Shown in pieces: positions 37,914 to 64,000 of a stretch of 64,000 nt of DNA (positions are counted from its first letter, which is position 1; each line of letters begins with the position of its first letter). The DNA is from Acidobacteriota bacterium. GTDB taxonomy: Bacteria > Acidobacteriota > Polarisedimenticolia > Gp22-AA2. Location: NCBI GenBank assembly GCA_046758905.1, contig JBHIBC010000005.1:4656-68655 (forward strand), given 5' to 3'. Below the pieces are notes generated by a model, which saw nothing but the letters and a program-made list of their open reading frames with translations, did no database searches and was not told the origin of the DNA. Both the position numbers and the translations under genes were made by a program.

Positions 37914-38175
37914 GGGAGTCCTCCTTGCTTCATGGGACATGGTTTGTCGGCCTCGTGAGGGCCATAGGGTAGGCGGATCCGGCTCTGCTGTCCAGGCCGG
38001 CCGGGACGGGCCGGCGCCCCGTTCGGCGTCCGTCCTTACGGGGGCGCGGCCCGGTCGTATCCTCCGAGGTCGAGCCGGCGAGTCCGTCCTCTATCAGCGA
38101 TGCCGTCCGGCCCGCGCCGAGGGGACGGCCCGCGCCGAATGGACGGCCCGCGCCGGCCGCCGGGAGGGCCCGAAC

Positions 38176-40689
38176 GTGCGCCACGGTTCCCACCGAGTCG
38201 CGGCTCGCTGCGGCTCGCTGCTGGCGGTCTTGTCGCTCGCCGCCTGCCGCGGGGCGGCGGCCCCGGGGCCGGGGACCGTCCGCCTGGTCGATCGCCGCGC
38301 CGCCGCGCTCGTGAGCGGCACGCCCGGAGGAGCCGGAGGGAGGCCGGGCGAAGCGCCGGGCGGGGGCCCGCCGCCGGCCGGGGCCGAGTGGCGCTTCGAG
38401 CGTCCGCCTCCAGGGCCCGGGACCGGCCACCGGGATCGGGCGGGGGCCGGGAAGATCGGGGCCGCGCGCGACTGGGAGCCGGGCCCCGGGGTCGCCGGCC
38501 TCGCCGTCCATGACGGGAAGCTGATCGGCCGCAGCAGCACCGATTTCCCCCTCATCCACCTCGAGCGCGGGGCGGGCCTCGACGATCAGGACCTGCTGCA
38601 CGAGATCCGGGTGCGGCTGCGGGTCTCGGCCGGCGCGAACCTGTCGCTCGCGCTGGATGATTCCGAGACGGTCGACCTGGTGAGGAAGGTGGCGGGCGCG
38701 CGGACCTTCCCATGGAGGCTCGCCACCCCGATCGTGCCGGGCGGCGAGCTCAGGACGTACGTCCTGCGGAGCCGCTGGCCGCACCGCGGAGCGGACATCC
38801 GGCACATCCTGATCCGGCCGACCGACGCGCCGGGGGCGACCTTCGAGATCGAGTCGGTCCGGCTCGTCTTCCGCAGACAGTACCTGGCCTCGATCCCCTC
38901 CGGGGCGGGCTGGCAGGGGCTCGGAGGGATCTATCGCGAGACGATCGTCTCCCGGGCGCCCGAGTCGATCCGGTTCGAGATCGACCTGCCCGACCGTCCG
39001 TGGCTCGACCTGGCGATCGGGACGATCGAGGGCGCTCCCGTGACCTTCCGCGTGACGGTGAGCCCGGCCGGGCCGGGCGCCGCCCCGGGGCCCGAGGGGA
39101 CCGGCGGCGGCGCGATCGTCCTCGAGCGCACGGTCACGACGCCGCGCCGCTGGGAGCCGGCGCCGATCGACCTGGCGTCATTCGCGGGGCGGCGCGTCGG
39201 GCTGACGCTGTCGCTGGCCGCCGATGCTCCGGGCAGGATCGGTTTCTGGGGCTCTCCGGTGGTGCGCCGGCGCCGAGCGCCGCCGGGCGGCCGCGGGCGC
39301 GGAGCGCCGCCGCGGGGCGTCATCCTGATCATGGCCGACACGCTGCGCCGGGACCACCTCGACGCCTACGGGTACGCCCGCGCCACCGGCCCCGCGCTGC
39401 GGGGGATGGCGGAGGAGGGGGCGCTGTTCGCCGACTGTCTGACCCAGGCGACCTGGACCAAGGTCGCGGCGCCGTCGCTCGTCACCTCGCTCTACCCGGC
39501 CGCGCACGGGGTGAGGGAGTTCGACCACCGCCTGCCCGGGAGCGCGGTGACGGCGGCCGAGATCTACCGCGACGCCGGGCACGCCACCGTCGCCTACTCC
39601 TCGAACCTGTTCACCGGGCGGTTCTCCAACATGCACCAGGGGTTCGAGGAGCTGCACGAGGACGGCTCGCTCGCCGATCCGGCCTCCAGCAAGACCTCGC
39701 GCGAGTATATGGACCGCGCGCTCGCCTGGATCGAGGCCCACCGGGACGTCCCGTTCTTCGTCTTCCTCCACCTCTACGACCCCCACGATCCGTACCGGCC
39801 GGGCCCGCCCTACGACGCGATCTGGGCCGACCCGTCGCGCCGCGAGGAGCACGAGCGGCAGGCGAGGCGGGTCCGCGAGCTGATCGCCGACCCCCAGCTC
39901 AGGAGGTTCGGCATGCCCAGCCGGGAGGAGCTGGCGAAGGCCGGCATCGACCCGGCGGCCTACGTGGGACGGGAGCGCGACCTGTACGACGGCTCCATCC
40001 GGGGGATGGACGCCGAGGTCGGCCGGCTCCTGGAGCGCCTGCGCGGGCTGCGGCTCGCGGACGCGACCCTCGTCGCCTTCGTCAGCGACCACGGGGAGGA
40101 GTTCCTGGAGCACGGCGAGATGTTTCACGGGCACACCGTCTACGGCGAGCTGACCGACGTGCCGCTGATCCTCTGGGGGCCCGGCGTCGTCCCGCGCGGC
40201 GCCGTGGTGGGCGAGACGGTCGAGCTGGTCGACGTCCTCCCGACGCTGCTCGAGCTGAGCGGCCTGCGGCCGCCGCCCGGCGCGCAGGGCCGCAGCCTGG
40301 TGCCGCTTCTGGGCGCGGCTCGAGCGCCTCCGCCCGGCTGGGAGAGCCGCCCCGCCCTCGTGGAGAAGGCGTCCATCGAGGACGTGGCCGGCCCGGGGCA
40401 CCGCGAGGAGGAGTCCTACGCGGCCGTGACCCGCGCATGGAAGCTGATCCACAACGTGAAGCGCCCCGTCGGCCGGCCGGAGTTCGAGCTGTACGATCGC
40501 CGCGCCGATCCGCTCGAGCGGAACGACGTCGCCGCGCGGCACCCCGCGGTGGTCGAGCGCCTGTCGCGCGAGCTGGCGGCGCGGCGCGATCGTGCCGCGG
40601 CCGGCCGGCTGCCGCCGGGCCCCGAGACCGCCGAGGAGATCGACCGGGAGCGGCTGGAGCGCCTCCGCGGCCTCGGCTACATCCGCTGA
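38176..40689 (+). CDS. Sulfatase-like hydrolase (alkaline-phosphatase superfamily) lipoprotein with large N-terminal domain
   Basis: GTG start with GGGAGGG 7 nt upstream; lipobox LSLAAC. C-terminal about 480 aa has the sulfatase/AP-superfamily pattern (VILIMADTLRRDHL...GYATVAYSSN...LHLYDPHDPY...VSDHGEEF). The canonical C/S-x-P-x-R formylglycine motif is not apparent (TQATWTKVAAPSL). Confidence 0.7.
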   Translation: MRHGSHRVAARCGSLLAVLSLAACRGAAAPGPGTVRLVDRRAAALVSGTPGGAGGRPGEAPGGGPPPAGAEWRFERPPPGPGTGHRDRAGAGKIGAARDWEPGPGVAGLAVHDGKLIGRSSTDFPLIHLERGAGLDDQDLLHEIRVRLRVSAGANLSLALDDSETVDLVRKVAGARTFPWRLATPIVPGGELRTYVLRSRWPHRGADIRHILIRPTDAPGATFEIESVRLVFRRQYLASIPSGAGWQGLGGIYRETIVSRAPESIRFEIDLPDRPWLDLAIGTIEGAPVTFRVTVSPAGPGAAPGPEGTGGGAIVLERTVTTPRRWEPAPIDLASFAGRRVGLTLSLAADAPGRIGFWGSPVVRRRRAPPGGRGRGAPPRGVILIMADTLRRDHLDAYGYARATGPALRGMAEEGALFADCLTQATWTKVAAPSLVTSLYPAAHGVREFDHRLPGSAVTAAEIYRDAGHATVAYSSNLFTGRFSNMHQGFEELHEDGSLADPASSKTSREYMDRALAWIEAHRDVPFFVFLHLYDPHDPYRPGPPYDAIWADPSRREEHERQARRVRELIADPQLRRFGMPSREELAKAGIDPAAYVGRERDLYDGSIRGMDAEVGRLLERLRGLRLADATLVAFVSDHGEEFLEHGEMFHGHTVYGELTDVPLILWGPGVVPRGAVVGETVELVDVLPTLLELSGLRPPPGAQGRSLVPLLGAARAPPPGWESRPALVEKASIEDVAGPGHREEESYAAVTRAWKLIHNVKRPVGRPEFELYDRRADPLERNDVAARHPAVVERLSRELAARRDRAAAGRLPPGPETAEEIDRERLERLRGLGYIR

Positions 40690-40785
40690 GGGGCCCCGCC
40701 GCCGCTCCTGAGCTTTCGGGGTACAATCCGGCGCCCCCTGCAACGAACCGAGCTCCGGGAGCGACCCGTCTTCGGAGGAAGACCG

Positions 40786-43497
40786 ATGCCGAGCTTCTGT
40801 CGCAGAGCCTTCACACCCAGCCTACTGATCGCCTCCACCCTGGCCCTGGCCGTCTGCCTCGCGCCCGGGCCGGCGGGCGCCGACGCGCCCGCCGCCGCGG
40901 CGGGGCGCGAGCTCACGGCCGACGATCTCAAGGGCCTCGAGTGGCGCAGCGTCGGGCCGGCGAACATGGGCGGGCGGGTGGCGGCGATCGCCCTCGTCCC
41001 GGGGAGCCGGACCAGCTTCTACGTCGGCTACGGCACCGGCGGCGTCTTCAGGACGGACAACCTGGGGACCACCTTCGAGCCGGTGTTCGACAAGTACCCC
41101 GTGCTGTCGATCGGCGCCATCGCCGTCGCCGACGCGCCGCCGGAGGGCGAGGGGGAGCCCGAGGGCAGGGGGAAGATCGTCTGGGTCGGGACCGGCGAGG
41201 CCAACGGGCGGAACAGCTCGTCGTGGGGCGGCGGCGTCTACCGCTCGACCGACGGCGGCGAGACCTTCACCTACGTCGGCCTGAGGCAGACGCACGACAT
41301 CCCGCGCCTGGCGGTCGACCCGCGCGACCCGGACGTCTGCTACGTGGCGGCGCTCGGACACCTGTGGGGGTACAACCCCGAGCGCGGCGTCTTCAAGACG
41401 GAGGACGGGGGCAGGACCTGGAAGCACGTCCTGAAGGTGGACGAGCGGACCGGCGCCGCGGACGTGGTCATCGATCCGACCAGCCCGGACACCGTCTACG
41501 CGGCGCTTTACGCCCGGCGCCGGACGCCCTGGAGCTTCTCCGGGAACAGCGACAGGGGAGGCATCTTCCGATCCGACGACGCCGGCCGCAGCTGGAAGAA
41601 GCTGACGAGCGGGCTCCCCCCGCGCAGCGGCCGGATCGGGCTGACCATCTATCCGAAGGACACGCGCATCCTGTACGCCGTGGTGGAGAGCGACTACGGC
41701 GGCCGGGGGCGCGACATGTTCGACAACTACTCCCCCAGCGGCGGCCTGTTCCGCACCGAGGACCGCGGCGAGACCTGGACCCGGGTCAGCCCGCTCAGCT
41801 TCCGGCCGTTCTACTTCTCGCGCGTGGCCGTCGACCCGAACGACGACCGGCGCGTCTACCTGCCGGGGTGGGACCTGGCGATCTCGGACGACGGCGGGAG
41901 GACGTTCCGCCGCTCCGGGAGCGAGAACGTCCACGTCGACTTCCACGCCATCGTCGTCAACCCGATCGACCCGCGGCAGATCCTCATCGGCACCGACGGC
42001 GGCCTGTACGTCTCCGAGGACCGGGCGAAGACCTGGCGCTTCCTCGACAACGTCGCCGCGGGGCAGTTCTACCGGGTCGCGGTCGACATGCTCGACCCGT
42101 ACCGGATCGGCGGCGGGCTGCAGGACAACGGCTCCTGGATCGGCCCCTCCGAGACGCTCTTCCTGACCGAGGACCAGAGGGCCGACGGCATCCTGAACTC
42201 CGACTGGCGGATGATCCACGGCGGCGACGGCTTCACCGTCGCCTTCGACCCGACCGACCCGAACCTGGTGTACGCCACGTCGCAGGGCGGGTACCTGGTC
42301 CGCATCCGGCTGGACGACAACGTCAAGAAGCTCATCAAGCCGGCGGCCCTCGAGGGGGACGAGCGGCTCCGCTTCAACTGGGACGCGCCGTTCCTGATCT
42401 CGCACCACGACCCGAGCGTCCTCTACCTGGGAGGCAACCGGGTCTTCAAGCTGACGGAGCGGGGCGAGCTGGCGTTTCCCATCGGCGGCGAGCTCAGCCG
42501 GGACGAGCCGGGCAAGACCGAGACGGTCGGCTCGGAGGCCGAGACCTACGGCACGGTGGTCTCGCTGGCGGAGTCGCCCCTGCAGCAGGGGCTCCTCTGG
42601 GCCGGCACCGACGACGGCCTCATCCACGTGACCCAGGACGACGGAAGGACCTGGACCGAGGTGACGCCGGAGCAGGTCGGCGGGCTGTACGTGTCGCGGA
42701 TCGCCGCGTCGCGGCACGCCGCTCGGACCGCCTACGTCGCGGTCGACGGCCACCGCAGCGACGTGTTCCGCCCGATCGTGTTGATGACCGAGAACGCGGG
42801 ACGGCGCTGGCGGGACATCACCGGCGACCTGCCGGACGGCGGGCCCGTGCGGGTCGTGGTCGAGGACGTGGCGAGCCCGCAGGTGCTCTATGCGGGGACC
42901 GAGTTCGGCATCTACGTCACCCTCGACCGCGGCCGCCGGTGGGTGCGGATGAACGGCTCGACCTTGCCCCCCGTGGCGGTCCACGACATCGTGCAGCACC
43001 CGCGCGAGAGGGATCTGGTGGTCGGCACGCACGGCCGCAGCGTCTACGTGCTCGACGACGCCTCGATGTTCGCGCAGCTCACGCCAAAGGTGCGCGGCCG
43101 GCCGCTGGCGCTGCTCGAGATCCTGCCCGGCACCCCGCGCCTGTACACGCGGCGCAGCTACGGATCCGGCCACGCCATCTTCCGCGCCAAGAACCCGCCG
43201 CTAGGGGCCGCCATCAACTACTGGCTGCGCGAGGAGGCCGGCCGGCCGGTCAAGGTCGAGATCACCGACGCCCACGACACCGTCATCCGCGAGCTTCAGG
43301 GCCCCGGCTATCGCGGCCTGAACCGCGTCGTCTGGGACCTGCAGGCCGATCCCAAGCACCGCATCCCGACGGTGGACGTGGCGTGGAACGAGCAGACCGA
43401 GTTCGTCCCGGCCGGCGAGTACAAGGTCACGCTCGAGGTGGGCGAGGAGAAGGTGGAGGGCACGGTCGAGGTGCGGCCGGCCCCGAACGCTCCGTGA
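40786..43497 (+). CDS. BNR/Asp-box repeat beta-propeller protein (sortilin/VPS10-like, GH74-like), secreted
   Basis: Signal peptide; at least 9 Asp-box repeats (STDGGETF, TEDGGRTW, SDDAGRSW, TEDRGETW, SDDGGRTF, SEDRAKTW, TQDDGRTW, TENAGRRW, TLDRGRRW). 903 aa, typical of two-propeller sortilin-like proteins. Confidence 0.8.
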   Translation: MPSFCRRAFTPSLLIASTLALAVCLAPGPAGADAPAAAAGRELTADDLKGLEWRSVGPANMGGRVAAIALVPGSRTSFYVGYGTGGVFRTDNLGTTFEPVFDKYPVLSIGAIAVADAPPEGEGEPEGRGKIVWVGTGEANGRNSSSWGGGVYRSTDGGETFTYVGLRQTHDIPRLAVDPRDPDVCYVAALGHLWGYNPERGVFKTEDGGRTWKHVLKVDERTGAADVVIDPTSPDTVYAALYARRRTPWSFSGNSDRGGIFRSDDAGRSWKKLTSGLPPRSGRIGLTIYPKDTRILYAVVESDYGGRGRDMFDNYSPSGGLFRTEDRGETWTRVSPLSFRPFYFSRVAVDPNDDRRVYLPGWDLAISDDGGRTFRRSGSENVHVDFHAIVVNPIDPRQILIGTDGGLYVSEDRAKTWRFLDNVAAGQFYRVAVDMLDPYRIGGGLQDNGSWIGPSETLFLTEDQRADGILNSDWRMIHGGDGFTVAFDPTDPNLVYATSQGGYLVRIRLDDNVKKLIKPAALEGDERLRFNWDAPFLISHHDPSVLYLGGNRVFKLTERGELAFPIGGELSRDEPGKTETVGSEAETYGTVVSLAESPLQQGLLWAGTDDGLIHVTQDDGRTWTEVTPEQVGGLYVSRIAASRHAARTAYVAVDGHRSDVFRPIVLMTENAGRRWRDITGDLPDGGPVRVVVEDVASPQVLYAGTEFGIYVTLDRGRRWVRMNGSTLPPVAVHDIVQHPRERDLVVGTHGRSVYVLDDASMFAQLTPKVRGRPLALLEILPGTPRLYTRRSYGSGHAIFRAKNPPLGAAINYWLREEAGRPVKVEITDAHDTVIRELQGPGYRGLNRVVWDLQADPKHRIPTVDVAWNEQTEFVPAGEYKVTLEVGEEKVEGTVEVRPAPNAP

Positions 43498-52711: not shown

Positions 52712-54103
<1,392 letters not shown>

Positions 54104-54128
54104 GCGGCCCGCGCCCGCCGGTCTTCCT

Positions 54129-54300
54129 GATCGCCGCGCTTGCCCGGCGCGCGACCGTCCCGATCGCCGCGCTTGCCCGCCCGCTGTCCTCCCGGCCGTC
54201 GCGCTTGCTCGCCCGCGCTCCTCGCGGCCGCCGGCTCTCGCGCCCGCGATCGTCCCGATCGGCACGGCTCCGGCGCCGCTGATCGTCCCGAACGGGACGG
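54129..54300. promoter_or_regulatory. Cluster of direct repeats, candidate enhancer (UAS) sites upstream of the sigma54 promoter
   Basis: GATCGCCGCGCTTGCCCG twice (about 54129 and 54162), variant GTCGCGCTTGCTCGCCCG (about 54198), and GATCGTCCCGATCGGCACGG / GATCGTCCCGAACGGGACGG (about 54249 and 54281). 110-280 bp upstream of the -24/-12 element. Confidence 0.35.
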
Positions 54301-54408
54301 CCGGTCCCGCGCCGCGCCTGCCCGGATCGCCGTCGCCGCGCGGCGGGAGCGGCCCAACCCTCCACGGGGCGATAAGTTGCGGCCGCGGCGGCCGGGCCGC
54401 CCGCGCGC

Positions 54409-54425
54409 CTGGCACGCCGCGTGCT
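54409..54425 (+). promoter_or_regulatory. Sigma-54 (RpoN) -24/-12 promoter: CTGGCACGccgcgTGCT
   Basis: Matches the YTGGCACGr-N3-TTGCW consensus at 16/17 positions, with exact GG to GC spacing (GG 54411-12, GC 54423-24). 46 nt upstream of the receiver gene and directly downstream of the bEBP gene. Confidence 0.6.
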
Positions 54426-54481
54426 GGAAGGACCAGAGGACGGCCCGCCTCGGCGACGAGGTCGAGCGAGCGGGAGGGACC

Positions 54482-54853
54482 GTGGGCGGGAAGACCAGAG
54501 TCCTGATCGTCGATGACGACCCGGAGGTCCTGAGCCAGCTCCGCTGGGCGCTGCGGGAGGAGTTCGACCTGCTGCTGGCGGCCAGCCCCCCGGAGGTCGA
54601 GGCGCTGCTGCTCGAGGCGAGCCCGCCGGCGGCCGCGCTGGTCGACCTGCACCTGCCGCCCGAGACCTCGTCCATCGACGGGGGTATCGCCGTCATCCGC
54701 GCGCTGAGGAGGGCCTCCGCCGCCACCCGGATCGTCGCCATCTCCGCCTACCCGAGCGAGGACTCGGACCGGCGTTCCCGCTCCGCGGGGGCGTCGATGC
54801 TGCTGAGCAAGCCGGTGCGGCGCGCGCGGCTTCTGGAGCTGCTGGGCGGATGA
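54482..54853 (+). CDS. Response regulator, receiver (CheY-like) domain only
   Basis: GTG start with GGGAGGG just upstream. VLIVDDD...D(LLLAA)...LVDLHLPP phospho-acceptor Asp, ...VIALSAYPS.. and K in LLSKP: a complete REC fold with no output domain. Confidence 0.7.
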   Translation: MGGKTRVLIVDDDPEVLSQLRWALREEFDLLLAASPPEVEALLLEASPPAAALVDLHLPPETSSIDGGIAVIRALRRASAATRIVAISAYPSEDSDRRSRSAGASMLLSKPVRRARLLELLGG

Positions 54854-54932: not shown

Positions 54933-57900
54933 ATGAAGGTCACACGACGCGTCGCTCGGGCGCGTGCCGCCTGGGCGATCCCGCTGACGGCCCTGCTCCT
55001 GTTCGCCCTCGGGGGGCGCGCGCCGGTCGAGAGGGACGAGCACGGGCGCATCCGGAACAGGCCTGTTCGCAGGGTGGAGCTGCAGGGGATCAGGGTCACG
55101 CTCGAGCAGCTGCAGCGCATCGACGCGCAGCTCGGGAAGCCCGAGCGCAGGGTCATTCCGTTCATGGAGCGGCCGGCACCAACGGAGCTTTCCGAGCCGG
55201 CGTCCTCCTCTCCGGCGCCGTCGGAGGGGAGAAGCCTCGAGCGCGAGCCGAGTCCGCGGGAGCCCGGCGCCGGCCCGCCCCAGGCACAGGGGGCGGAGCA
55301 GGGAGGATATGAATCGGCCGCCTCCCCGGCGGCGGCGCCTCTGGCCAACGATTTCCCGGGCATGAAGGACGATCTGACGGTGATCCCGCCCGACACCCAC
55401 GGGGCCGCCGGTCCCGACTTCCTCGTGAGCGTCCTCAACCGCGGCTTCGCCGTCTTCGACAAGGCGACCGGGACGATCGTCTTCGGGCCGATCTCCCTGC
55501 AGGCGTTCTGGGCCCCCCTGGGCACGGCGCCCGGGGATCCGGCGAGCGATCCATTCGATCCGAGGGTGATCTACGACCAGTACGCCGGCCGGTTCATCGT
55601 CACCTCGGCCGGCGGACGCTGCGGTCCCGCCTCCTGGATCCTGGTGGCGATCTCGATCTCGAGCGACCCGAACGCGGGGTTCACCCTGTACGCCGTCCGG
55701 GCGGACGCGACGACCCCGGGGCAGTGGGCGGACTATCCTGCGGTCGGCGTCAATCCCGACAACATCTACATCACCGCCAACATGTTCGACAACGCCGGCA
55801 GCTGCCCCCGGGGCGCCGCCTCTCACCCCGCCAAGTTCTGGGCGATCGAGAAGGCCGCGCTTGTGGGCGGAACGCTCGCGTTCAGCGAGTTCATCGATGT
55901 CGTCGGCGGCGGGACGTGGCAGCCCACCCACGCCTTCGGCCCGACCCCGGTCAACTACATCATCAACGAGGGATGGTCGGTGAGCCCCGGCACGAGGCAG
56001 CTGCGCATCCAGGAGTTCTCGGGCCCGGTCGGATCGCCGATCCTCACGGATCTCGGCTTCATCCAGGTCGCCCGCTACGGCCTGGACCTGATCGAGGACG
56101 CCCCGCAGCTCAACTGCTCGGCGAGGATCGAGACGAACGACTTTCGGCTGCTCGACGCCGTCCTCAGGAACAACAAGATCTGGGCGACGCACCACGTGGA
56201 CGACCCGGTCGCGGACGGCGTCGGGAGGACGGAGGTCGCCTGGTACGAGATCGATCCGACCCAGGCGATGCCGTCTCCCGGCCCCTTCGCCGGCCCGATC
56301 CAGCAGGGACGGGTGAGCGGCGGCCCCCCCGCGGGCCTCAGGTACTACTACCCGTCCATCGCGGTGAACGCCGCCGAGTGCGTGGCGCTGGGGTTCTCGG
56401 GGTCGGACGGCTTCAACCCCGCGAGCGGCTTCTACACCTCGCGGGAGCCGAACGATCCGCCCGGAACGATGGGCCCGGTCTCGCCCCTCAAGGGCGGGGT
56501 GGATCCCTACTTCAAGGAGTTCCTCCCGCCGCTGTGCGCGGTGAGCGTCCAGTTCGAGGCGGAGCCCCCGCCCCCTCCCCCCCCGCCGAACCAGTTCGTG
56601 GTCGGGTCGACCATCTTCGACCCGGGCGCGATCATGACCGTCACTCCCTTCTTCTTCAGCGACGGCACGCAGTTCAGCGGCGGGTACGCCGAGATCTCCC
56701 TGGCGAACCAGGCGCTGGGGACGGGCCAGGAGCTGGCCATCAACAACGTCAACATCGACTTCAGCTTCAGCTGCACCGAGGGCGCGACGATCCCCAACCT
56801 GACGCTGAAGTACGCCGAGCTCGGCGGCAACATCAATATGGAGATCAACGGCGACTTCAGGAACTTCCAGGACTTCATCAACGTCAGCGGGCTGGTCATC
56901 GGCGGCGTCCGGGTCACCGCCACGGACTTCGGCCCGCCCGGCAACGGTCCCGGGATCCTCTCCCTCCAGGGGACGATCTTCTCCTTCAGCCTCGGCGGTC
57001 AGGAGCTGTGGATCGACGACGTCAGGAGCTCGCTCGCGGCGTTCACGAGGAACCGCTGGGGCGATTACAGCGCCACGGTGATCGACCCGAGCGACGGGAG
57101 CTTCTGGACCATCCAGGAGTACGCCGAGCAGGAGCTGGCGCCGGGGTGCAACGCCCCCGACACCGGCGTGTGGGGGACCTGGTGGGGCAACTTCGCCTGC
57201 GCGGCGATCCCCTGCAGCGTCGACGCCGACTGCGACGACGGGGTCTTCTGCAACGGCGCCGAGGTCTGCCAGAACGGCCTCTTCTGCGGGCCCGGCACAC
57301 GGCCTTCCTGCGACGACGGGAACCCCTGCACGATCGACAGCTGCGACACCGGCTCCGACTCGTGCCTGAACGCTCCCGCCCCCGACACGGAGAGAGCCGC
57401 GGGTGCCGACGGCAACTGCGACACGGCGGACGACAACCTGGATCTCTTCGGTCCCGACGGCCTCTGCGGCACGAGCGACGACGGAGCGGGGGACGGCACC
57501 TGCGACGCCGTCGACAACTGCCCGGGCAGGTACAACCCCGGCCAGGAGGACGCCGACCGGGACGGGCTCGGGGACGTCTGCGACGCCGATCCGTGTCCGG
57601 CCGGGCTCGTCTACGTGACCGAGTCGGGCGGCGCCAGTGGAGAGCTGTCGGTGGTCGACCTCCTCACGGGGACCGTCTCGGTCATAACGAGCGGGCTCTC
57701 CGGCCCGAGCGGGGTCTCCCTCAACACGGCCGGGACCAAGGCCTACGTTTCGGAGTCGGGCGGCCAGCAGCTGCTGGAGATCGATCTCGCGACCGGCGTG
57801 CCCAGCTTCATTTACGGGCAGTGGCCCCAGGAGGGGGTGGCCGTCTGCGACCTCGGGACCCACGGCTACGTGACCGAGGTCGTGATGGGCAACGCCGGCG

Positions 57901-59825
57901 CCCTCACGATGGTGAACCTCGGCAGCGGCTCGATCTTCCCCTTCAACGTCGGCGCCCCGCCGACGGGCGTCGACCTCAACGGAGCCAACACCGCCGCCTA
58001 TGTCCTGGAGCCCGGCCCCGGGACGCTCGAGGAGGTGATACTCGGCGGGGTGTGCGGGGTCCCCGCACTCATCAACACCGTGACCGGCGCGCTGAGCAGC
58101 CCCGAGAAGATCGCGGTCAACGCCGCGGGCACCCTCGCGTACGTCACCGAGCTCGGGACCGGGAGCCTCCTGGAGATCGATCTCGCCACGGGGATCCGGA
58201 CGGCCATCGCCACGAGCCTGATCAACCCGACGGGTGTCGATCTCAACCCGGCCGAGACCACGGCCTACGTGACCGAGCAAGGGAGCGGGCGACTGCTGTC
58301 GGTCGACCTCGCCACCGGCAACGTGACGACCGAGGCGTTCGGCCTGTCCGTCGCCACGGACGTGGCGTTTCAGCCCGGGGGCAACACGATCAGCATGCCC
58401 GACGGCGTCACTGGCTTCTCCGGCTCGAGCATCGTGGTCCCGGTGAGTCTCACGGACATCACCGGCCAGGGGGTCTTCTCCGTCGATCTGACGGTCCGCT
58501 ACAACAGGGCCGTGCTTCAGATCCCGACCACGCCCGCGCCCAACGGCGGCGTGGCGCTCGGGAGCCTGGCGAGCGGCTGCACGCTGACGACCAATCTGAA
58601 CACCCCCGGCGAGGCGGTCATCTCGGTGTTCTGCAGCTCCGCCATGAGCGGCTCCGGCTCCCTGGTGGAGATCACCTTCAACGTCATCGGCGCCGCCGGG
58701 ACCGGAAGCCCGCTCGACATCGTCACCGCCGCGCTCAACGAGGGGACCCCGGGCGTCTGCGTGGACGACGGTTCCGTCTCGATCCCCGAGTTCATCGCCG
58801 GGGCGATCCGCTACTACCGGGACCAGGCGAGCGCCACGGAGCCCGGGACGCAGCCGGTCGACGCCGCGGCGGTCGATCTCACCGGGTTCATCAATACGAC
58901 GACGAGCACCGACTGCAGCGGCGCCTACACCTTCACCCCCGTGACCCTGAACCAGGACTACAGAGTCACTCCGGGCAAGCTGAACGACTTCGACGCGGGG
59001 ATCGACCCGTTCGACGCCTCGCTGAACGCCCAGCACGTGGTCGGCCTCATCACTCTCACGCCGAATCAGCAGCTGGCGGCCGACGTGACGGGCAACGGGA
59101 CACTCACCTCCTTCGACTCCGCCATGATCGCGCGCTTCACGGTCGGGTCGATCACGCGGTTCCCCGTGGCGACGACCAACGGCAGCGACTGGACCTTCGT
59201 CCCGGTCCCGCAGACGGAGCCGAACCAGACGGTGGTCAACCCCGTGCCGTCGGCGGGCGTTCAGGGGAGCATCTCCTACACGCCGCTCGCCCGCTCGGCC
59301 GCCTCGCAGGATCTCCTGGGGGTCCTCTACGGGGATGTCTCGGGCAACTGGCAATCGAGCTGCACCTCGGGCGCGGCGAGCCTGCCCTTTGCCGCCTCAC
59401 TCGAGGCGCCCAAAGGTGTGAGGCAGCACGGCCCCGCCGGCCGTCTCGTCCTGCCCGCGGTCGCGGCGCGGCCGGGCGAGCTGATCCAGGTGCCGATCAG
59501 GGCCCTGGGGACCGGGGATGCGGTCTCCTTCTACCTGGATCTGCGTTTCGACCCCTCCGTCCTGAGCGTCGAGCGGATCGAGGTGGGGGACGCGGCCCCC
59601 GGCTTCAGCCTCGCGTCGAATCGGGACGACCCCGGGCGGGCGCGGATGGCCCTGTTCCATACGCTTCCCTTGCGGGCCGGGGGCGAGGTCGCGGTCGTCA
59701 CCTTCCTGGTGGTCGGCAAGCCGGGTGACGCGACGGCGCTCACGCTGCCGGCCTTCACGGTCAACGAGGGGCGGATCAGGGCCGTGGTGAAAGAGGGGCT
59801 GGTCCGAGTCGTCCCCGGACGCTGA
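54933..59825 (+). CDS. Giant secreted multi-domain surface protein (1630 aa): N-terminal unknown domain, poly-Pro linker, Cys-rich (Myxococcus-type) repeats, thrombospondin-type-3-like Ca-binding repeats, YVTN/NHL-like beta-propeller, cohesin-like and dockerin-like modules, C-terminal cohesin-like domain
   Basis: ATG 54933 with AGAGGAG RBS; signal peptide. PPPPPPPP linker (about aa 545). CDDGNPCTIDSCD-type repeats. DxDxDG Ca-binding loops (GADGNCDTADDNLD, DADRDGLGDVCDADPC). Five repeats of ..AYVTE.G.G.LL.IDLATG.. (propeller blades). Cohesin-like beta-sandwich segments (VPVSLTDITGQGVFSVDLTVRYNRAVLQ; LIQVPIRALGTGDAVSFYLDLRFDPSVLS). Dockerin-like segment DVTGNGTLTSFDSAMIARFTVG. Confidence 0.8.
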   Translation: MKVTRRVARARAAWAIPLTALLLFALGGRAPVERDEHGRIRNRPVRRVELQGIRVTLEQLQRIDAQLGKPERRVIPFMERPAPTELSEPASSSPAPSEGRSLEREPSPREPGAGPPQAQGAEQGGYESAASPAAAPLANDFPGMKDDLTVIPPDTHGAAGPDFLVSVLNRGFAVFDKATGTIVFGPISLQAFWAPLGTAPGDPASDPFDPRVIYDQYAGRFIVTSAGGRCGPASWILVAISISSDPNAGFTLYAVRADATTPGQWADYPAVGVNPDNIYITANMFDNAGSCPRGAASHPAKFWAIEKAALVGGTLAFSEFIDVVGGGTWQPTHAFGPTPVNYIINEGWSVSPGTRQLRIQEFSGPVGSPILTDLGFIQVARYGLDLIEDAPQLNCSARIETNDFRLLDAVLRNNKIWATHHVDDPVADGVGRTEVAWYEIDPTQAMPSPGPFAGPIQQGRVSGGPPAGLRYYYPSIAVNAAECVALGFSGSDGFNPASGFYTSREPNDPPGTMGPVSPLKGGVDPYFKEFLPPLCAVSVQFEAEPPPPPPPPNQFVVGSTIFDPGAIMTVTPFFFSDGTQFSGGYAEISLANQALGTGQELAINNVNIDFSFSCTEGATIPNLTLKYAELGGNINMEINGDFRNFQDFINVSGLVIGGVRVTATDFGPPGNGPGILSLQGTIFSFSLGGQELWIDDVRSSLAAFTRNRWGDYSATVIDPSDGSFWTIQEYAEQELAPGCNAPDTGVWGTWWGNFACAAIPCSVDADCDDGVFCNGAEVCQNGLFCGPGTRPSCDDGNPCTIDSCDTGSDSCLNAPAPDTERAAGADGNCDTADDNLDLFGPDGLCGTSDDGAGDGTCDAVDNCPGRYNPGQEDADRDGLGDVCDADPCPAGLVYVTESGGASGELSVVDLLTGTVSVITSGLSGPSGVSLNTAGTKAYVSESGGQQLLEIDLATGVPSFIYGQWPQEGVAVCDLGTHGYVTEVVMGNAGALTMVNLGSGSIFPFNVGAPPTGVDLNGANTAAYVLEPGPGTLEEVILGGVCGVPALINTVTGALSSPEKIAVNAAGTLAYVTELGTGSLLEIDLATGIRTAIATSLINPTGVDLNPAETTAYVTEQGSGRLLSVDLATGNVTTEAFGLSVATDVAFQPGGNTISMPDGVTGFSGSSIVVPVSLTDITGQGVFSVDLTVRYNRAVLQIPTTPAPNGGVALGSLASGCTLTTNLNTPGEAVISVFCSSAMSGSGSLVEITFNVIGAAGTGSPLDIVTAALNEGTPGVCVDDGSVSIPEFIAGAIRYYRDQASATEPGTQPVDAAAVDLTGFINTTTSTDCSGAYTFTPVTLNQDYRVTPGKLNDFDAGIDPFDASLNAQHVVGLITLTPNQQLAADVTGNGTLTSFDSAMIARFTVGSITRFPVATTNGSDWTFVPVPQTEPNQTVVNPVPSAGVQGSISYTPLARSAASQDLLGVLYGDVSGNWQSSCTSGAASLPFAASLEAPKGVRQHGPAGRLVLPAVAARPGELIQVPIRALGTGDAVSFYLDLRFDPSVLSVERIEVGDAAPGFSLASNRDDPGRARMALFHTLPLRAGGEVAVVTFLVVGKPGDATALTLPAFTVNEGRIRAVVKEGLVRVVPGR

Positions 59826-59842: not shown

Positions 59843-60712
59843 ATGGGACGCGTGGAGCGGCCTGTGAGGCACGACCCGGGGCGGCGCGACCCGGGACGGT
59901 GCGACCCGGGGCGGCGCGACCCGGGACGGCGCGACCGTTGCCAATCTCGGTTCGGGCCACGGCGGGCCGCACTCGGGATGATCCTGCTCCTGCTGGCGGG
60001 CTCAGGCTCGTCGGGCCTCGCCGCGACCCTGAGCCTGCCAGCCGGCGCGGGCGCACCACCGGGCGCCTCCACGGTGGTCCCTCTCCAGGTCGACGACGCG
60101 GCGGGGATGCTGGGGACCGACATCCTCATCGCCTACGACCCCGCGGTGGCGATCGCCACCGGCGTCTCCCCGACCCCCCTCTCGGCGAGCCAGACGCTGA
60201 CCGTGAACCTGAACGGTCCCGGCGTGATCGTCATCTCGCTGTTCGGCGCGTACCCCCTGGACGGGAGCGGGGCCCTGCTGGATCTCTCCTTCACCTCGGT
60301 CGGACCCCTGAACAGCCGGACGGTCCTCGACCTCGCGTCGGCCGACATCAACGAGGGGGGGATCCCGGTGATGCTGCTCGACGGGCAATACTGCGTACAG
60401 GGGCCGACCGAGGAGGTTCGGGGCCTCGAGGCCGGCCTCGCCGCGCCCGGTTCCACGGTGGCGATACTGAGCTGGGCCCCCGATCCCTTGGCGGCCTCCT
60501 TCAACGTCTATCGTGGCGAGAGCCCCGACCTGAGCGATCTCGCCTGCTTCCTTCCCGGCGTCACGGGCACCTCGACCGCGGACGACGGAGCCCTCCCGCC
60601 GGGCGGGCTGTTCGTCTACATGGTGACTGCGGCCAACTGCCGAGGCGAATCGACGCTGGGGTTCGACTCGACCGGCTCGGAGCGGATGAACTCAGCGCCC
60701 TGCAGCCCTTAG
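59843..60712 (+). CDS. Cohesin-domain-containing secreted protein with C-terminal FN3-like module
   Basis: ATG 59843 has GGAGGT 7 nt upstream (alternative ATG 59978, before the hydrophobic MILLLLAGSGSSGLAA). Cohesin-like type segment VVPLQVDDAAGMLGTDILIAYDPAVAIATGVSP...LLDLSFTSVG. The C-terminus ...ILSWAPDPLAASFNVYRGES... resembles an Ig/FN3-like domain. Confidence 0.65.
   Translation: MGRVERPVRHDPGRRDPGRCDPGRRDPGRRDRCQSRFGPRRAALGMILLLLAGSGSSGLAATLSLPAGAGAPPGASTVVPLQVDDAAGMLGTDILIAYDPAVAIATGVSPTPLSASQTLTVNLNGPGVIVISLFGAYPLDGSGALLDLSFTSVGPLNSRTVLDLASADINEGGIPVMLLDGQYCVQGPTEEVRGLEAGLAAPGSTVAILSWAPDPLAASFNVYRGESPDLSDLACFLPGVTGTSTADDGALPPGGLFVYMVTAANCRGESTLGFDSTGSERMNSAPCSP
59872..59937. repeat. 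15-nt tandem repeat CGACCCGGGRCGGYG x about 4.4 (encodes (DPGRR)n if the upstream start is used)
   Basis: Direct inspection of 59872..59937: perfect 15-nt periodicity with R/Y alternation. Confidence 0.6.
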
Positions 60713-61030: not shown

Positions 61031-61215
61031 GTGGGGGCGGGCGCGGCCCGCGAGGAGCCGGCGCGCCGACACGCAGCTCCCGAAGAACTAGCGTGGGGGC
61101 GGGCGCGGCTCGCGAGGAGCCGGCGCGCCGACACGCAGCTCCCGAAGAACTAGCGTGGGGGCGGGCGCGGCTCGCGAGGAGCCGGCGCTAAGGCGCACGC
61201 GCGTCGCGAAAGACT
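61031..61215. repeat. 62-bp direct tandem repeat, about 3 copies (GTGGGGGCGGGCGCGGCYCGCGAGGAGCCGGCGCGCCGACACGCAGCTCCCGAAGAACTAGC), third copy degenerate
   Basis: Copies at 61031..61092 and 61093..61154 differ by one base; a third at 61155.. diverges after 35 nt. Lies in the convergent intergenic region between the cohesin gene and the HNH gene, overlapping the HNH 3' end. No spacers, so not CRISPR. Confidence 0.7.
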
Positions 61216-63869
61216 AGCGCCAGGGCGGGCGCAGGCACCTCTCGGGAACCGGGCGTCCCGCCAACCGGCGCGCGGTCCCGGGGAGCCCGGCCGGTCCCGC
61301 GGAGGCTCTCGCCGAGGTAGCGCGCCAGAGGGGGGCCGTCGGGCCTGACGCCCAGCTCCCACCACAGATCCGAGTTCGCACGGCCGGAGCAGCGCAGCCA
61401 TCCCTGGTGGATTCCCCGCTGGTGATGTCCCACGCACAGGGTGATGAGGTTGTCGTCCTCGTCGCCTCCGCCGCGCGAGCGGAAGATGATGTGGTGCTCG
61501 TTGAGGTTGCTGCGCGAGGAGCACCCGGGGACCCGGCAACGCCAGCCGTCGCGCTCGAAGATGCGATAGCGCCGGCGCCAGCCCGCGTCGCCCGGGTTGT
61601 CCCACGTCTCGCGCAGCGACCGGATGAGCATGACGAGACACTCCCAGTCGCGGAGATCGCGGCCCGCGACGCCGCGGCACGCGCGCAAGGCGCTGTGCCA
61701 GAGTGCGGCGACGTCCGTGGGCGCCCAGAAGGAGATCCGGTGAATCGGCCACCACCACGCCTGGGTCCGGCCCCGGCGATCGGCCTGTCCCGTGGGGTCG
61801 GCCGCGGCGGCTGGCGCCGGGCTCTTGGGGCGCGCAGACGTGTGCCGCGCGGTCCCGGGGCGAGGGGACGGGTCCGCAGGCGGGAGGGGCGCGCCCGATC
61901 GCCCGTCCCAGGACAGGGTCCGGGCCAGCGCGCAGATGTGTGCCGCCTCGGGGGCGGGGGCGGCGGGTGTATCCCCTGTGTCCGGGACCGGGGGCCCGCT
62001 CGCCGACTCCGAGGGTGCGGGGGCGCGCGTCCCGCTCGGGACCGGGGGCCTGGTCGCCGCGGGCGGGGCGGCGGGTGGGTCGGCGGGCGCCGCGGCGGGC
62101 GGGGCGGTGGCGTCCTCCCGCATCGCCGTGGCGATGTCGCAGAGGGCCACGACCTCCTCGAGGCGGCGCACCGTCACGCGCCGGGCGTAGCGGATCCACC
62201 GGCCCTGGGTCTCGGGCCGGACGACCCGGACCAGATGGCGCGCGTGGCACCAGGTGATGAGGCCTCGCCTGTAAGCGTCGGCCAGCAGCGGGAGGCTGCG
62301 AAGTCGCCGATCCAGCGCGATCAGGTAGCGGGCGCGCCGGGGCGACATCCCGAGCGCGGCGCGGCACCAGTCGCCCAACGAGTCGGACCCCAGATCGCGA
62401 TAGAGCCGGGTCCCGGCCAGGGTGGCGAGAAGGCGACCCTGGCGCCATGCGAGCGACTGGCGGAGACGGACCAGCCCCCGAAGCCGTGCGTCCAGATCCC
62501 AGGGGTCGGGCGCCTGCCCCGCCGATTCGCCTCCGGCCCGGGCTCCGTCCGCGCCGGCCGCCTGACCGGGAGCGACCGCGCCGGAGCGGGCTCCGGACCC
62601 GAGAGCGTCCGCACGGGAATCGACCGCCAGGGCGCCCGCCGGCAGCGACGACCCGGGATCGGGAGGGATCTCCGGCGCGCGGCCCGCGAGAATGCTCTCG
62701 GGATCGGCGGCGGAGCCCAGGGGGCTCAGAGCCTCCCGGACAACGGCGGATACCTCCGACCAGACGCGCAGGCCGAGGAGCCCCTCGGCGGCGCCGGTGG
62801 ACGGGCGGGGCGCATCCGCGCCGCCTCCCGCGCGGTCGGCCTCGCTCGCGGCGGCTGGAGGGGGTGGCGGGGCCGCGTCCGTACCGGGGCCCGCGCCGTC
62901 AGGCTCGATCGTGGTGCCGGGAGTGGGCGCTGGGAGCGCGTCCGCGGGTGGAGATGGGATCGCGCCGGCGGCGCCGGGATTCCTCGAGGTGGTGAGGGGG
63001 ACCGTGCCGTTCGCTCGGTCCGGAGCGTCCTTGACATCGGGGACTCCGGAGAGGAAGTCGGCGGCCAGGTACTCGGCGCAGCGCCAGGCCGGCTCCTGGT
63101 GACCGGCGACGCGACGGATGAGATCGAGCGCCCAGTGCCAGAGGGCCACGACCTGCCCCGGCGCCTTAAAAGAGATGAAGCGGCCCGGGTCGTCCTGCCC
63201 CACGGCGGCGTCGGCCTGCGGCGCAGATGTGTGCCGCTGAGGAGCGGCCGGCTGCGCAGCCCTGTGCCGGTGGGGCAGGGACGTCTCGGCGGTCGTCTCG
63301 CCCGTGGTCGTGGTGGCTCCGTCGGGCGCGGCGTCCGGATCCCTCGGGAGCCGAGCCGGGTCATCGGGCTCTCGGCCCGGCTGGGGCTGGGAGCATCCCG
63401 GATCTGCGGGCGTTTGGGGCGGCCGGCGCCCTGCGGACCCCGGACCCTCGGGCGCGGGGGTCTGGCGGCGCTCCACGCGCGCCAGGTCCTCCAGCTCGCG
63501 GACCGTCAGGCGCCGGGCCCGCGCGAGCCACAGTGCCTGGGTGGCGGCGGTGGAGGCGGCGGCGATGACCCGAAGCTTCGACGGCGGGAGGTCGCCGGCG
63601 TCGAAGGCGCGGGCGACGTGCGGCAGGACGCGCAGGGCGCGGTCCATCCTGAGGAGCGACTGGGCGCGGCGGAGGCTCATCCCGAGCCGCTCCGTCAGGT
63701 AGTCGGCGAGCCGGACGTAGCCGAGCCGCCGGAAGCGGCCCTCGCCGCTCATCAGGTAGAGGCCCCTGCCGAGTCGGCGCTCGATGACGGCGCCGGCGCG
63801 GGTCAGGCGCAGGAGCTGAGACTCGAGAAGGCGGGCCGCCAGGCCGCTGGTGACGGCGGAAGCATCGAC
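61188..63869 (-). CDS. HNH endonuclease with duplicated DUF222-like N-terminal domains
   Basis: Start ATG 63869 with AAGGAGG 4-5 nt upstream (MMPRPG...). C-terminal HNH: RDGWRCRVPGC...NLNEHHIIFRSRGGGDEDDNLITLCVGHHQRGIHQGW. Two internal repeats of a DUF222-like module (...LTVRELEDLARVER...ISFKAPGQVVALWHWALDLIRRVAG and ...VTVRRLEEVVALCD...ISFWAPTDVAALWHSALRACRGVAG), separated by Pro/Ala-rich low-complexity linkers. Confidence 0.8.
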   Translation of the reverse strand, partial: VDASAVTSGLAARLLESQLLRLTRAGAVIERRLGRGLYLMSGEGRFRRLGYVRLADYLTERLGMSLRRAQSLLRMDRALRVLPHVARAFDAGDLPPSKLRVIAAASTAATQALWLARARRLTVRELEDLARVERRQTPAPEGPGSAGRRPPQTPADPGCSQPQPGREPDDPARLPRDPDAAPDGATTTTGETTAETSLPHRHRAAQPAAPQRHTSAPQADAAVGQDDPGRFISFKAPGQVVALWHWALDLIRRVAGHQEPAWRCAEYLAADFLSGVPDVKDAPDRANGTVPLTTSRNPGAAGAIPSPPADALPAPTPGTTIEPDGAGPGTDAAPPPPPAAASEADRAGGGADAPRPSTGAAEGLLGLRVWSEVSAVVREALSPLGSAADPESILAGRAPEIPPDPGSSLPAGALAVDSRADALGSGARSGAVAPGQAAGADGARAGGESAGQAPDPWDLDARLRGLVRLRQSLAWRQGRLLATLAGTRLYRDLGSDSLGDWCRAALGMSPRRARYLIALDRRLRSLPLLADAYRRGLITWCHARHLVRVVRPETQGRWIRYARRVTVRRLEEVVALCDIATAMREDATAPPAAAPADPPAAPPAATRPPVPSGTRAPAPSESASGPPVPDTGDTPAAPAPEAAHICALARTLSWDGRSGAPLPPADPSPRPGTARHTSARPKSPAPAAAADPTGQADRRGRTQAWWWPIHRISFWAPTDVAALWHSALRACRGVAGRDLRDWECLVMLIRSLRETWDNPGDAGWRRRYRIFERDGWRCRVPGCSSRSNLNEHHIIFRSRGGGDEDDNLITLCVGHHQRGIHQGWLRCSGRANSDLWWELGVRPDGPPLARYLGESLRGTGRAPRDRAPVGGTPGSREVPAPALALVFRDARAP

Positions 63870-63936
63870 GCCTGGCCGGGGCATCATGCGACCTCCTTTC
63901 CGAGGGGGCCAGGTCAATCGACGCGGGCGATGGCGA

Positions 63937-63964
63937 GTATGGTGTAAGTCAAGCGAAAAGTCAA
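63937..63964 (-). promoter_or_regulatory. Putative sigma70 promoter for the HNH gene inside an AT-rich island (TTGACT-17-CATACT on the minus strand) with upstream A/T tract (UP-element-like)
   Basis: Minus-strand reading ...aaatttttttgcattttcttcTTGACTtttcgcttgacttacacCATACTcgcc...; local GC far below the window average. Confidence 0.35.
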
Positions 63965-64000
63965 GAAGAAAATGCAAAAAAATTTCCGGCCCCGCCGGGC

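Follow-up and report, generated by a model that had tools for sequence, protein, structure and literature searches.

We analysed a 64,000-nucleotide stretch of contig JBHIBC010000005.1 from an Acidobacteriota bacterium (hereafter the window), focusing on a plus-strand open reading frame (ORF) that runs from ATG 54933 to a stop codon at 59825 and is preceded by the Shine–Dalgarno sequence GAGGAG. The ORF is real; its G+C content at third codon positions (GC3), 0.93, is that expected of a gene in a window of about 72% G+C. Its 1630-residue product is 100% identical to NCBI MFQ5876405.1, entered as 'MAG: cohesin domain-containing protein [Acidobacteriota bacterium]' (MAG, metagenome-assembled genome) on a 72.5-kb contig, and the same protein, with a different start call, is found in an independent Logan assembly (P0278). 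The protein is a secreted multi-module mosaic in which mostly recognisable types of part are joined in an unusual combination. Modular secreted proteins that carry cohesin and dockerin outside cellulosomes are a known kind; the novelty lies in two domain families that no catalogue covers and in the unique way in which one is nested in the other. We are confident of the overall anatomy, in which a propeller head with a nested jelly-roll is followed by a stalk of Cys-rich and TSP3 repeats, a YVTN propeller, and a cohesin–Ig/dockerin–cohesin tail (Table 1).

The N-terminal propeller and its family

The leader starts Arg-rich and includes hydrophobic residues at about 14–28, which would be a signal peptide or a signal anchor. 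A short segment at about residues 47–75 (VELQGIRVTLEQLQRIDA) is conserved among the closest homologues and is followed by a Pro/Ser/Ala/Glu-rich linker.

For residues 101–750, Pfam gave no match at E ≤ 10. NCBIfam found nothing in the N-terminal region of the window protein or on two propeller homologues, and a phmmer search of the whole protein against Protein Data Bank (PDB) sequences matched downstream modules only, none of the hits falling in the N-terminal domain. A profile of 74 family members likewise found no PDB chain at E ≤ 10, and Pfam searches of 24 short family members at the same threshold yielded accessory-domain matches only, none placeable in the propeller. There was thus no Pfam or PDB profile match at E ≤ 10 to GH183/DUF4185, GH43, GH32, or GH33 (GH, glycoside hydrolase). 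These results agree with the initial annotation, according to which the N-terminal domain matches no known family. Its extent, given there as residues 60–520, had to be revised: BLASTP to the closest homologue (P0001) and to a distant one (P0059) aligned residues from about 135 to 530 and again from about 700 (NRWGDYSATVIDP...FWTIQEYAE...WGTWWG), showing a discontinuous domain of residues ~135–530 and ~701–755. Since the two pieces adjoin each other in both homologues, residues 531–700 are an insertion.

The homologue search recovered at least 248 propeller homologues with 30–59% identity, and relatives were detected in at least 585 genomes when each GTDB species was represented by a single genome. 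The family spans Acidobacteriota, Planctomycetota, Nitrospirota, Deltaproteobacteria/Myxococcota, Bacteroidota, Ignavibacteria, Chloroflexota, Verrucomicrobiota, and Binatota. In the homologues, the propeller is always N-terminal, behind a hydrophobic leader, and is followed by FN3, FG-GAP/VCBS, TSP3, Calx-beta, TIG, CARDB, dockerin, or cohesin modules or by C-terminal domains of the type IX secretion system (T9SS). No conserved neighbours were present around three propeller homologues (L001, L002, and L028). A link to sialidases through the PF13088 (BNR_2) annotation of P0024 was considered and rejected, as no family member has a BNR_2 match inside the propeller region. Also among these genomes (loci L009 and L028) are an archaeal Candidatus Methanoperedens MAG and a cultured Firmicute isolate, Fictibacillus iocasae, in the latter of which a stand-alone 471-residue propeller is followed by a 479-residue protein without a Pfam match. 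In an Actinomycetes MAG (L083, 6001–8364), the tblastn match to the propeller covers 2364 nt for about 410 query residues, nearly twice the usual length, which suggests an insertion or duplication; the jelly-roll family described below is absent there.

An AlphaFold2 (AF2) model of residues 130–765, computed from an 81-sequence alignment, was all-beta, with a mean predicted local distance difference test score (pLDDT) of 89.5 and a predicted template-modelling score (pTM) of 0.79. Its DSSP string contains about seven four-strand groups outside the insert, and the last group is split by the insert between strands 1 and 2. On the strength of this model, the N-terminal domain can be assigned with high confidence as an all-beta propeller, with about seven blades by strand count. 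Foldseek comparison of the model with the PDB returned many matches with E-values of 1e-7 to 1e-5 and identities of 7–11%, headed by GH183 EndoMA1 (8ic1, 8hhv), GH43 beta-xylosidases, trans-sialidases (GH33), and GH32 enzymes. These neighbours are propeller enzymes that also bear a beta-sandwich module, and the resemblance of the model to them appears weak and at the level of the fold only.

Conservation within the family is pronounced. Eleven polar residues are invariant among the 74 propeller sequences (D154, N169, D209, D215, D267, Q392, N479, R708, D711, D718, and Q728) and four are nearly so (R220, R412, Y526, and E729); the window protein retains all of them. It also has the set of family motifs (IPPDTxGAxGP, FDP...YD...GRF, WADYP, APQ, PSIAVN, RWGDYS...DP...FWTxQEYA, and WGTWWG; alignments A2 and A5), except that the near-invariant His163 is replaced by Phe. 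The invariant acidic, basic, and amide residues suggest a small-ligand or catalytic pocket.

Table 1. Features of the 1630-residue protein and of the adjacent genes, in window coordinates
Feature	Positions	Strand	Basis or remarks
Whole ORF, 1630 residues	54933..59825	+	MFQ5876405.1
Leader, residues 1–134	54933..55334	+	Sequence; BLASTP alignment to P0001
N-terminal propeller, piece 1, residues 135–530	55335..56522	+	Blades 1–6 and first strand of last blade (DSSP)
Nested jelly-roll, residues 531–700	56523..57032	+	Member of second unnamed family
Octaproline, residues 545–552	56565..56588	+	Inside nested jelly-roll
N-terminal propeller, piece 2, residues 701–755	57033..57197	+	Propeller-closing motifs RWGDYS...DP...FWTxQEYA...WGTWWG
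Cys-rich repeats, then TSP3-type repeats, residues 756–890	57198..57602	+	Dicty_CTDC, sub-threshold; COMP 3fby; Omp28_seleno domain
YVTN/NHL-type beta-propeller, residues 891–1145	57603..58367	+	Six ~44-residue repeats
Cohesin 1, residues ~1146–1290	58368..58802	+	Pfam Cohesin
Ig-like, dockerin-like, and conserved X segment, residues 1291–1500	58803..59432	+	Pfam sub-threshold; family profile
Dockerin-like duplicated segment, residues ~1338–1413	58944-59171	+	Family profile
Cohesin 2, residues ~1501–1630, C-terminal	59433..59822	+	Family profile
Downstream 289-residue protein	59843..60712	+	MFQ5876406.1; hydrophobic leader, one cohesin, Cys-flanked FN3-like tail
Stand-alone response-regulator receiver gene	54483..54853	+	Likely start GTG 54483, not TTG 54140
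Candidate sigma-54-type -24/-12 element	54410..54425	+	TGGCACgccgcgTGCT; one mismatch; 58 nt 5' of receiver start

The nested jelly-roll domain

Measured between the counterparts of Tyr526 and Arg708, the host loop comprises 3–14 residues in 73 homologues, with 9 residues in 64 of the 73, and 181 residues in the window protein. The point of insertion falls within the best-conserved part of the propeller family, LKxGxxxYxK-[loop]-RWGDYS. By sequence comparison, the insert was matched by none of the 120 propeller homologues listed, and it was absent at all 80 genome loci encoding propeller relatives. We also considered the DUF7901 domain of P0095 as a counterpart of the insert; it was rejected, having no BLASTP similarity.

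Searched alone, residues 531–700 matched seven small secreted proteins of 175–200 residues, of which one bears a PEP-CTERM signal. When 1.84 billion cluster representatives were then searched with a profile, the insert fell into a sizeable family: at least 1656 proteins matched at E ≤ 1e-3, and 474 of them reached E ≤ 1e-30 (clusters counted at 50% identity). The insert scored 2e-63 against the family profile and kept 11 of 11 invariant residues. In this family, the domain occurs singly as a free-standing protein, or repeated in tandem, an array containing at most eight matched stretches; proteins P0128–P0277 reach lengths of 3108 residues. On ten representatives, Pfam gave no match on the domain, the other modules present being HYR, dockerin, and the T9SS C-terminal domain. 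NCBIfam likewise found nothing on family representatives, and the family profile matched no PDB entry at E ≤ 10. Having no Pfam or NCBIfam model, the family looks like an undescribed extracellular repeat domain. Among its 150 best representatives, the window protein is the only one that also has the propeller.

When the insert was modelled alone (AF2, 25-sequence alignment), it formed a beta-sandwich with a pLDDT of 91.7 and a pTM of 0.87. Its best matches among PDB structures, all of them weak, were to CBM6 and CBM29 (CBM, carbohydrate-binding module), to CBM-like domains in GH43 enzymes and in Ape1, and to gingipain adhesin domains. Both the propeller and the jelly-roll are thus new as families and ordinary as folds. 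Family motifs (alignments A1 and A3) are NNVNL, GEYGGNLNxxINGDFRNF, GGQELWIDD, and a terminal Cys pair (CxDFE ... DDVC), and members usually start with CxDFExLxLG and end with GGQELWIDDVC. The Cys pair would form a disulfide joining the adjacent termini. Both positions are lost in the window insert (Ser538 and Arg698), which fits its termini being held by the host loop instead.

The octaproline had been read as a linker following the N-terminal domain. It lies instead at residues 545–552, within the nested domain, where it enlarges the loop after the first strand at the position of the family's L-x-L-G; AF2 confidence was low there. Placed after the guest's first strand, the octaproline thus belongs to the guest domain as one of its internal loops. 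The placement of the whole insert beside RWGDYS suggests an added binding module.

Downstream modules and neighbouring genes

Residues 756–830 are made up of Cys-rich repeats (CDDGxFCNG / CDDGNPCTxDxCD). Such repeats had been proposed to be of the Myxococcus type; their presence was confirmed and the type was not, as TIGR02232 gave no match in NCBIfam at E ≤ 1. The best match of this part was Pfam Dicty_CTDC at residues 792–811, with 19.6 bits against a cutoff of 27. Of the TSP3-like Ca2+ loops, one repeat was indicated by phmmer, in which residues 849–886 matched COMP (3fby) at 1.6e-6 and thrombospondin-2 at 2e-3. Pfam PF02412 gave no row at E ≤ 1, and the Asp-rich sequence (DNCPGRYNPGQEDADRDGLGDVCD) was read directly. 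Residues 756–890 also contain a match to the Omp28_seleno domain (2.7e-8), and the nearest NCBIfam matches of the TSP3 part, both weak, were the myxobacterial cell–cell cohesion proteins MtsC and MtsD. The next module is indeed a propeller of the YVTN/NHL type, with six repeats rather than the five blades first counted: AYVTE motifs occur at residues 893, 937, 978, 1022, 1069, and 1111, with a period of about 44 residues. In phmmer searches of the PDB, residues 900–1161 matched 1l0q at 5e-10 and the Pizza proteins at about 1e-5. TIGR02276 scored 15.8 bits, below its cutoff of 27.85, and Pfam propeller families were below their cutoffs as well; the assignment of the fold rests on the 1l0q match together with the six regular repeats.

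The two cohesin-like domains of the initial annotation were recovered by Pfam, PF00963 scoring 58.6 bits over the whole protein in two stretches (cutoff 24.1); cohesin 2 alone scored 21.8 bits, below the cutoff. Dockerin_1 (PF00404) reached 17.9 bits on the whole protein and 20.3 bits on the C-terminal fragment, short of its cutoff of 22.9. The dockerin-like repeat, at residues 1354–1413, thus remained below the Pfam cutoff when searched alone, but a profile built from 19 homologues of the last 341 residues (the tail profile, A4) matched about ten solved dockerins, including 8x39 (1.1e-10), 4uyq_B (9e-9), 5m2o_B (1.5e-5), and 1ohz_B (8.7e-4). The same profile matched about 30 solved cohesins, the best being 2xdh (1.2e-10), with 3l8q, 4ums, and 6kg8 also among them, and no unrelated EF-hand protein appeared among its PDB matches. 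Because the profile matches solved modules of both types, the cohesin and dockerin calls are sound. The pattern that would have overturned the initial annotation, a known family for the N-terminal domain together with spurious cohesin and dockerin calls, was accordingly not what we found.

A dockerin of type I has two tandem segments, each with a 12-residue Ca2+ loop (Asp or Asn at positions 1, 3, 5, 9, and 12) and a helix behind it. Within the dockerin-like region, segment 2 (DVTGNGTLTSFD) has D1, N5, and D12 of such a loop, with Thr at positions 3 and 9, and segment 1 (LNDFDAGIDPFD) has D3, D5, D9, and D12, with Leu at position 1. PF00404 is precomputed in 11 tail homologues, several of which carry PF00404 and PF00963 together. 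A cassette of the form [Ig-like]-[dockerin]-[conserved X, ending YGDVSGNW]-[cohesin] recurs in 18 homologues. Its Ig-like segment has a sub-threshold resemblance to CarboxypepD_reg/SdrD_B. This match, ahead of the dockerin, covers only the first half of those profiles, and conserved stretches resembling strands come after the dockerin (GSDWxFxP ... YGDVSGNW; G, D, G, N, and W are invariant). Judging from these alignments, the dockerin may be nested in an Ig-like domain, which would be a second domain-in-domain arrangement in the protein.

Eighteen nucleotides downstream of the large ORF begins the gene for MFQ5876406.1 (ATG 59843; alternative start Met46 at 59978). Its cohesin scored 21.2 bits in Pfam and 1.3e-23 with the tail profile. 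On a JGI metagenome contig (L004, 1–2602), a 5'-truncated orthologue of the large protein (P0280, 54% identity) is likewise followed, after 8 nt, by a gene for a protein of 271 residues that is 58% identical to MFQ5876406.1. P0280 covers the C-terminal half of the large protein, the contig ending before any propeller/insert region. By this comparison of sequences, the large gene and the small cohesin gene are a conserved syntenic pair. The two-gene module encodes three cohesins and one dockerin, and a profile scan of the window revealed no further members of these cohesin, dockerin, propeller, and jelly-roll families. The 5' end of the small gene contains a 15-nt tandem repeat at 59868–59936 (GGCGCGACCCGGGAC, 4.6 copies), which would encode (RRDPG)x4 and is intergenic if translation starts at Met46; the N-terminus of the orthologue on L004 is Arg-rich as well.

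Upstream of the large ORF, an ORF starting at TTG 54140 (237 residues) has a Response_reg domain only from residue 121, indicating that it probably over-extends the receiver gene. A start at GTG 54483, with the Shine–Dalgarno sequence GGGAGGGA, gives a typical stand-alone receiver of 123 residues. This gene is possibly the first of the transcription unit that includes the large ORF. An NtrC-type sigma-54 activator gene lies further upstream on the plus strand (52712–54103), and the intergenic region of about 380 nt between the two genes (54104–54482) holds the candidate -24/-12 element. In the window-wide scan, eight sigma-54 matches were found against 11.3 expected, not above chance; because such sites are not enriched, we regard the element as a lead only. 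Direct repeats with 32–33-nt spacing (CCxGATCGCCGCGCTTGCCCG at 54126 and 54159; weaker copies at 54179 and 54242) are possible enhancers at which the adjacent activator would act.

Elsewhere in the window, the minus strand carries an ORF of 929 residues (61188–63977) that runs towards the cohesin gene pair. Its matches to HNH endonuclease and ParB-HTH are below threshold, and it may belong to a mobile element or have a role in defence. The region 37717–43497 encodes a sulfatase-domain protein (990 residues) and a Sortilin/BNR Asp-box propeller protein (903 residues), both secreted glycan-related candidates that are not homologous to the N-terminal propeller.

Possible function and relation to known systems

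Taking anatomy and mechanism together, we assign our best explanation a probability of about 0.45. Its mechanistic part, a glycan-targeting head combined with cohesin–dockerin assembly, is tentative and taken by itself somewhat doubtful. In this proposal, the propeller and the nested jelly-roll would form a glycan-recognising, possibly glycan-cleaving head, in which the CBM-like guest module would add or redirect substrate binding beside the conserved site. The Cys-rich and TSP3 repeats would serve as a stalk stabilised by disulfides and Ca2+, and the Ca2+-dependent cohesin–dockerin tail would keep the protein in an extracellular assembly, formed through its own dockerin (head-to-tail), through the co-encoded cohesin protein, or with dockerin proteins whose genes lie elsewhere. 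The adjacent two-component genes, of the NtrC-type/sigma-54 kind, may be needed for expression. Export markers, namely the T9SS C-terminal domain and PEP-CTERM, are found in relatives of both unnamed domains. A bolder version, in which the propeller is a new, widespread family of carbohydrate-active enzymes (hydrolases or lyases) of soil and groundwater bacteria and the protein a 'mini-cellulosome-like' device, seems improbable to us.

Several observations weigh against the proposed mechanism. Sequence profiles (Pfam and PDB) tie the propeller to no glycosidase, lyase, or lectin family, and the Foldseek TM-scores of 0.2–0.3, with a maximum of 0.48 when normalised to influenza neuraminidase, are so low that they inform little beyond 'beta-propeller'. 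At position 163, where 70 of 74 propeller sequences have His, the window protein has Phe, and this replacement could mean that a catalytic or metal-binding residue has been lost. None of the matches of the insert to PDB structures reached E ≤ 1e-3. The three homologue neighbourhoods share no carbohydrate-related genes. Export past the outer membrane is assumed from the T9SS and PEP-CTERM signals of relatives; the window protein has neither, and on reading its sequence we recognised no sorting signal behind the C-terminal cohesin 2. Because Acidobacteriota have an outer membrane, surface exposure is likewise an assumption for such a protein. Finally, partner specificity of cohesins and dockerins cannot be read off their sequences.

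The main rival to a glycan-targeting head is a non-catalytic adhesin or matrix protein, in which the propeller is a ligand- or protein-binding platform and the other modules, adhesive or structural, build extracellular matrix or cell–cell contacts. We consider this less likely than not, while giving it more weight than any other alternative. The substitution of the 95%-conserved His163 speaks for it, as do the adhesin-type accessory modules found across the propeller family (FN3, FG-GAP/VCBS, Calx-beta, TIG, CARDB, TSP3, and cohesin), the weak similarity of the TSP3 part to MtsC and MtsD, and the lack of glycan-utilisation genes around L001, L002, and L028. By contrast, the 11 invariant and four near-invariant polar residues, maintained down to about 30% identity and across many phyla, are more typical of a catalytic or small-ligand pocket, and the structural neighbours of the propeller are enzymes. 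A quite different location is also conceivable, with the hydrophobic segment acting as an uncleaved signal anchor and the modules working in the periplasm or anchored to the inner membrane. The hydrophobic stretch lacks a clear A-x-A cleavage site and has a conserved segment behind it, and the C-terminal sorting signal is absent; however, relatives of both unnamed domains bear T9SS C-terminal domains or PEP-CTERM, and cohesin, dockerin, and TSP3 modules are Ca2+-dependent and extracellular, making this arrangement quite improbable.

Two explanations in terms of artefacts carry still less weight. The sub-cutoff single-sequence scores of Dockerin_1 and cohesin 2 raise the idea that both calls arose spuriously from generic Ig-like or EF-hand-like folds. 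This idea is largely refuted and very unlikely, given the whole-protein Cohesin score, the solved cohesins and dockerins matched by the tail profile to the exclusion of unrelated EF-hand proteins, the homologues that pass Pfam for both modules, and, by sequence, the 12-residue Ca2+ loop of the second dockerin segment. Similarly, an assembly or binning chimera might be suspected because, of the roughly 200 relatives compared, this protein alone has the 170-residue insertion. A second assembly source (the Logan assembly) contains the identical protein, however, the insertion is in frame with the host domain continuing precisely on either side, and the AF2 model folds both domains jointly at high confidence. 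The insert has a GC3 of 0.97, in line with the rest of the gene, which indicates neither a chimera nor recently acquired foreign DNA; we regard a chimera as extremely unlikely.

The nesting joins two sizeable extracellular families, each lacking a Pfam, NCBIfam, or PDB entry, in a rare arrangement, and it marks the loop adjoining RWGDYS as a likely functional site of the propeller. Should the propeller prove to be an enzyme or a lectin, it would represent a new family common in Acidobacteriota, Planctomycetota, Nitrospirota, and Bacteroidota. A 'mini-cellulosome-like' device, if real, would combine a catalytic head and a substrate-binding module gained by nesting, and would be displayed and multimerised by a non-cellulosomal cohesin–dockerin system in which the co-encoded cohesin is a dedicated partner. 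The tail cassette together with the syntenic small cohesin gene offers a compact and testable example of cohesin and dockerin outside cellulolytic Firmicutes. If none of these readings is true, the protein would be one further large modular surface protein without an assigned function.

Among known proteins, the YVTN region resembles the surface-layer YVTN propeller of Methanosarcina mazei (1l0q) and the designed six-bladed 'Pizza' in its period of about 44 residues; compared with these, it has six repeats and scores below the TIGR02276 and Pfam propeller cutoffs. As in GH183 EndoMA1 and in GH43, GH32, and GH33 enzymes, a beta-propeller is paired with a beta-sandwich; in EndoMA1, five blades are joined to a sandwich, a putative CBM, which binds oligosaccharide (PMC10509167). 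Unlike these enzymes, the window protein has a propeller of about seven blades by strand count, not five or six, its sandwich is nested in a blade loop instead of being appended, and catalytic residues are not identifiable. Nesting of a carbohydrate-binding domain is known from the PA14 domain inserted in GH3 beta-glucosidases. There, too, a complete beta-sandwich occupies a loop of the host domain close to the functional site (a putative one here), whereas the host fold and the guest family both differ.

For the tail, a counterpart exists in Archaeoglobus fulgidus, an archaeon whose ORFs combine cohesin and dockerin in one polypeptide; the best solved match of the tail profile, 2xdh, labelled only 'COHESIN' in the match table, is presumably its cohesin. 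PMC9705933, citing Voronov-Goldman et al. (2011), describes high-affinity binding by this non-cellulosomal cohesin–dockerin pair, which provides a precedent for such modules outside cellulosomes. A literature search for non-cellulosomal cohesin–dockerin systems in Acidobacteria yielded cellulosome papers only. As in A. fulgidus, cohesin and dockerin occur here in an organism without a cellulosome context. Unlike there, the modules end a 1630-residue mosaic that includes two propellers, a conserved Ig-like/X cassette surrounds the dockerin, a separate gene supplies a small cohesin protein, and binding is predicted. Cellulosomal adaptor scaffoldins of the ScaB type differ from the window protein in other respects: it has no recognisable glycoside hydrolase, CBM3, or SLH anchoring module, it comes from a Gram-negative Acidobacteriota MAG, and it carries only two cohesins, its remainder having no scaffoldin counterpart. 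Like these scaffoldins, it unites cohesins and a dockerin in one polypeptide that can both receive and be received, and ScaB-type dockerins and cohesins (4uyq, 4uyp, and 3l8q) are among the matches of its tail profile.

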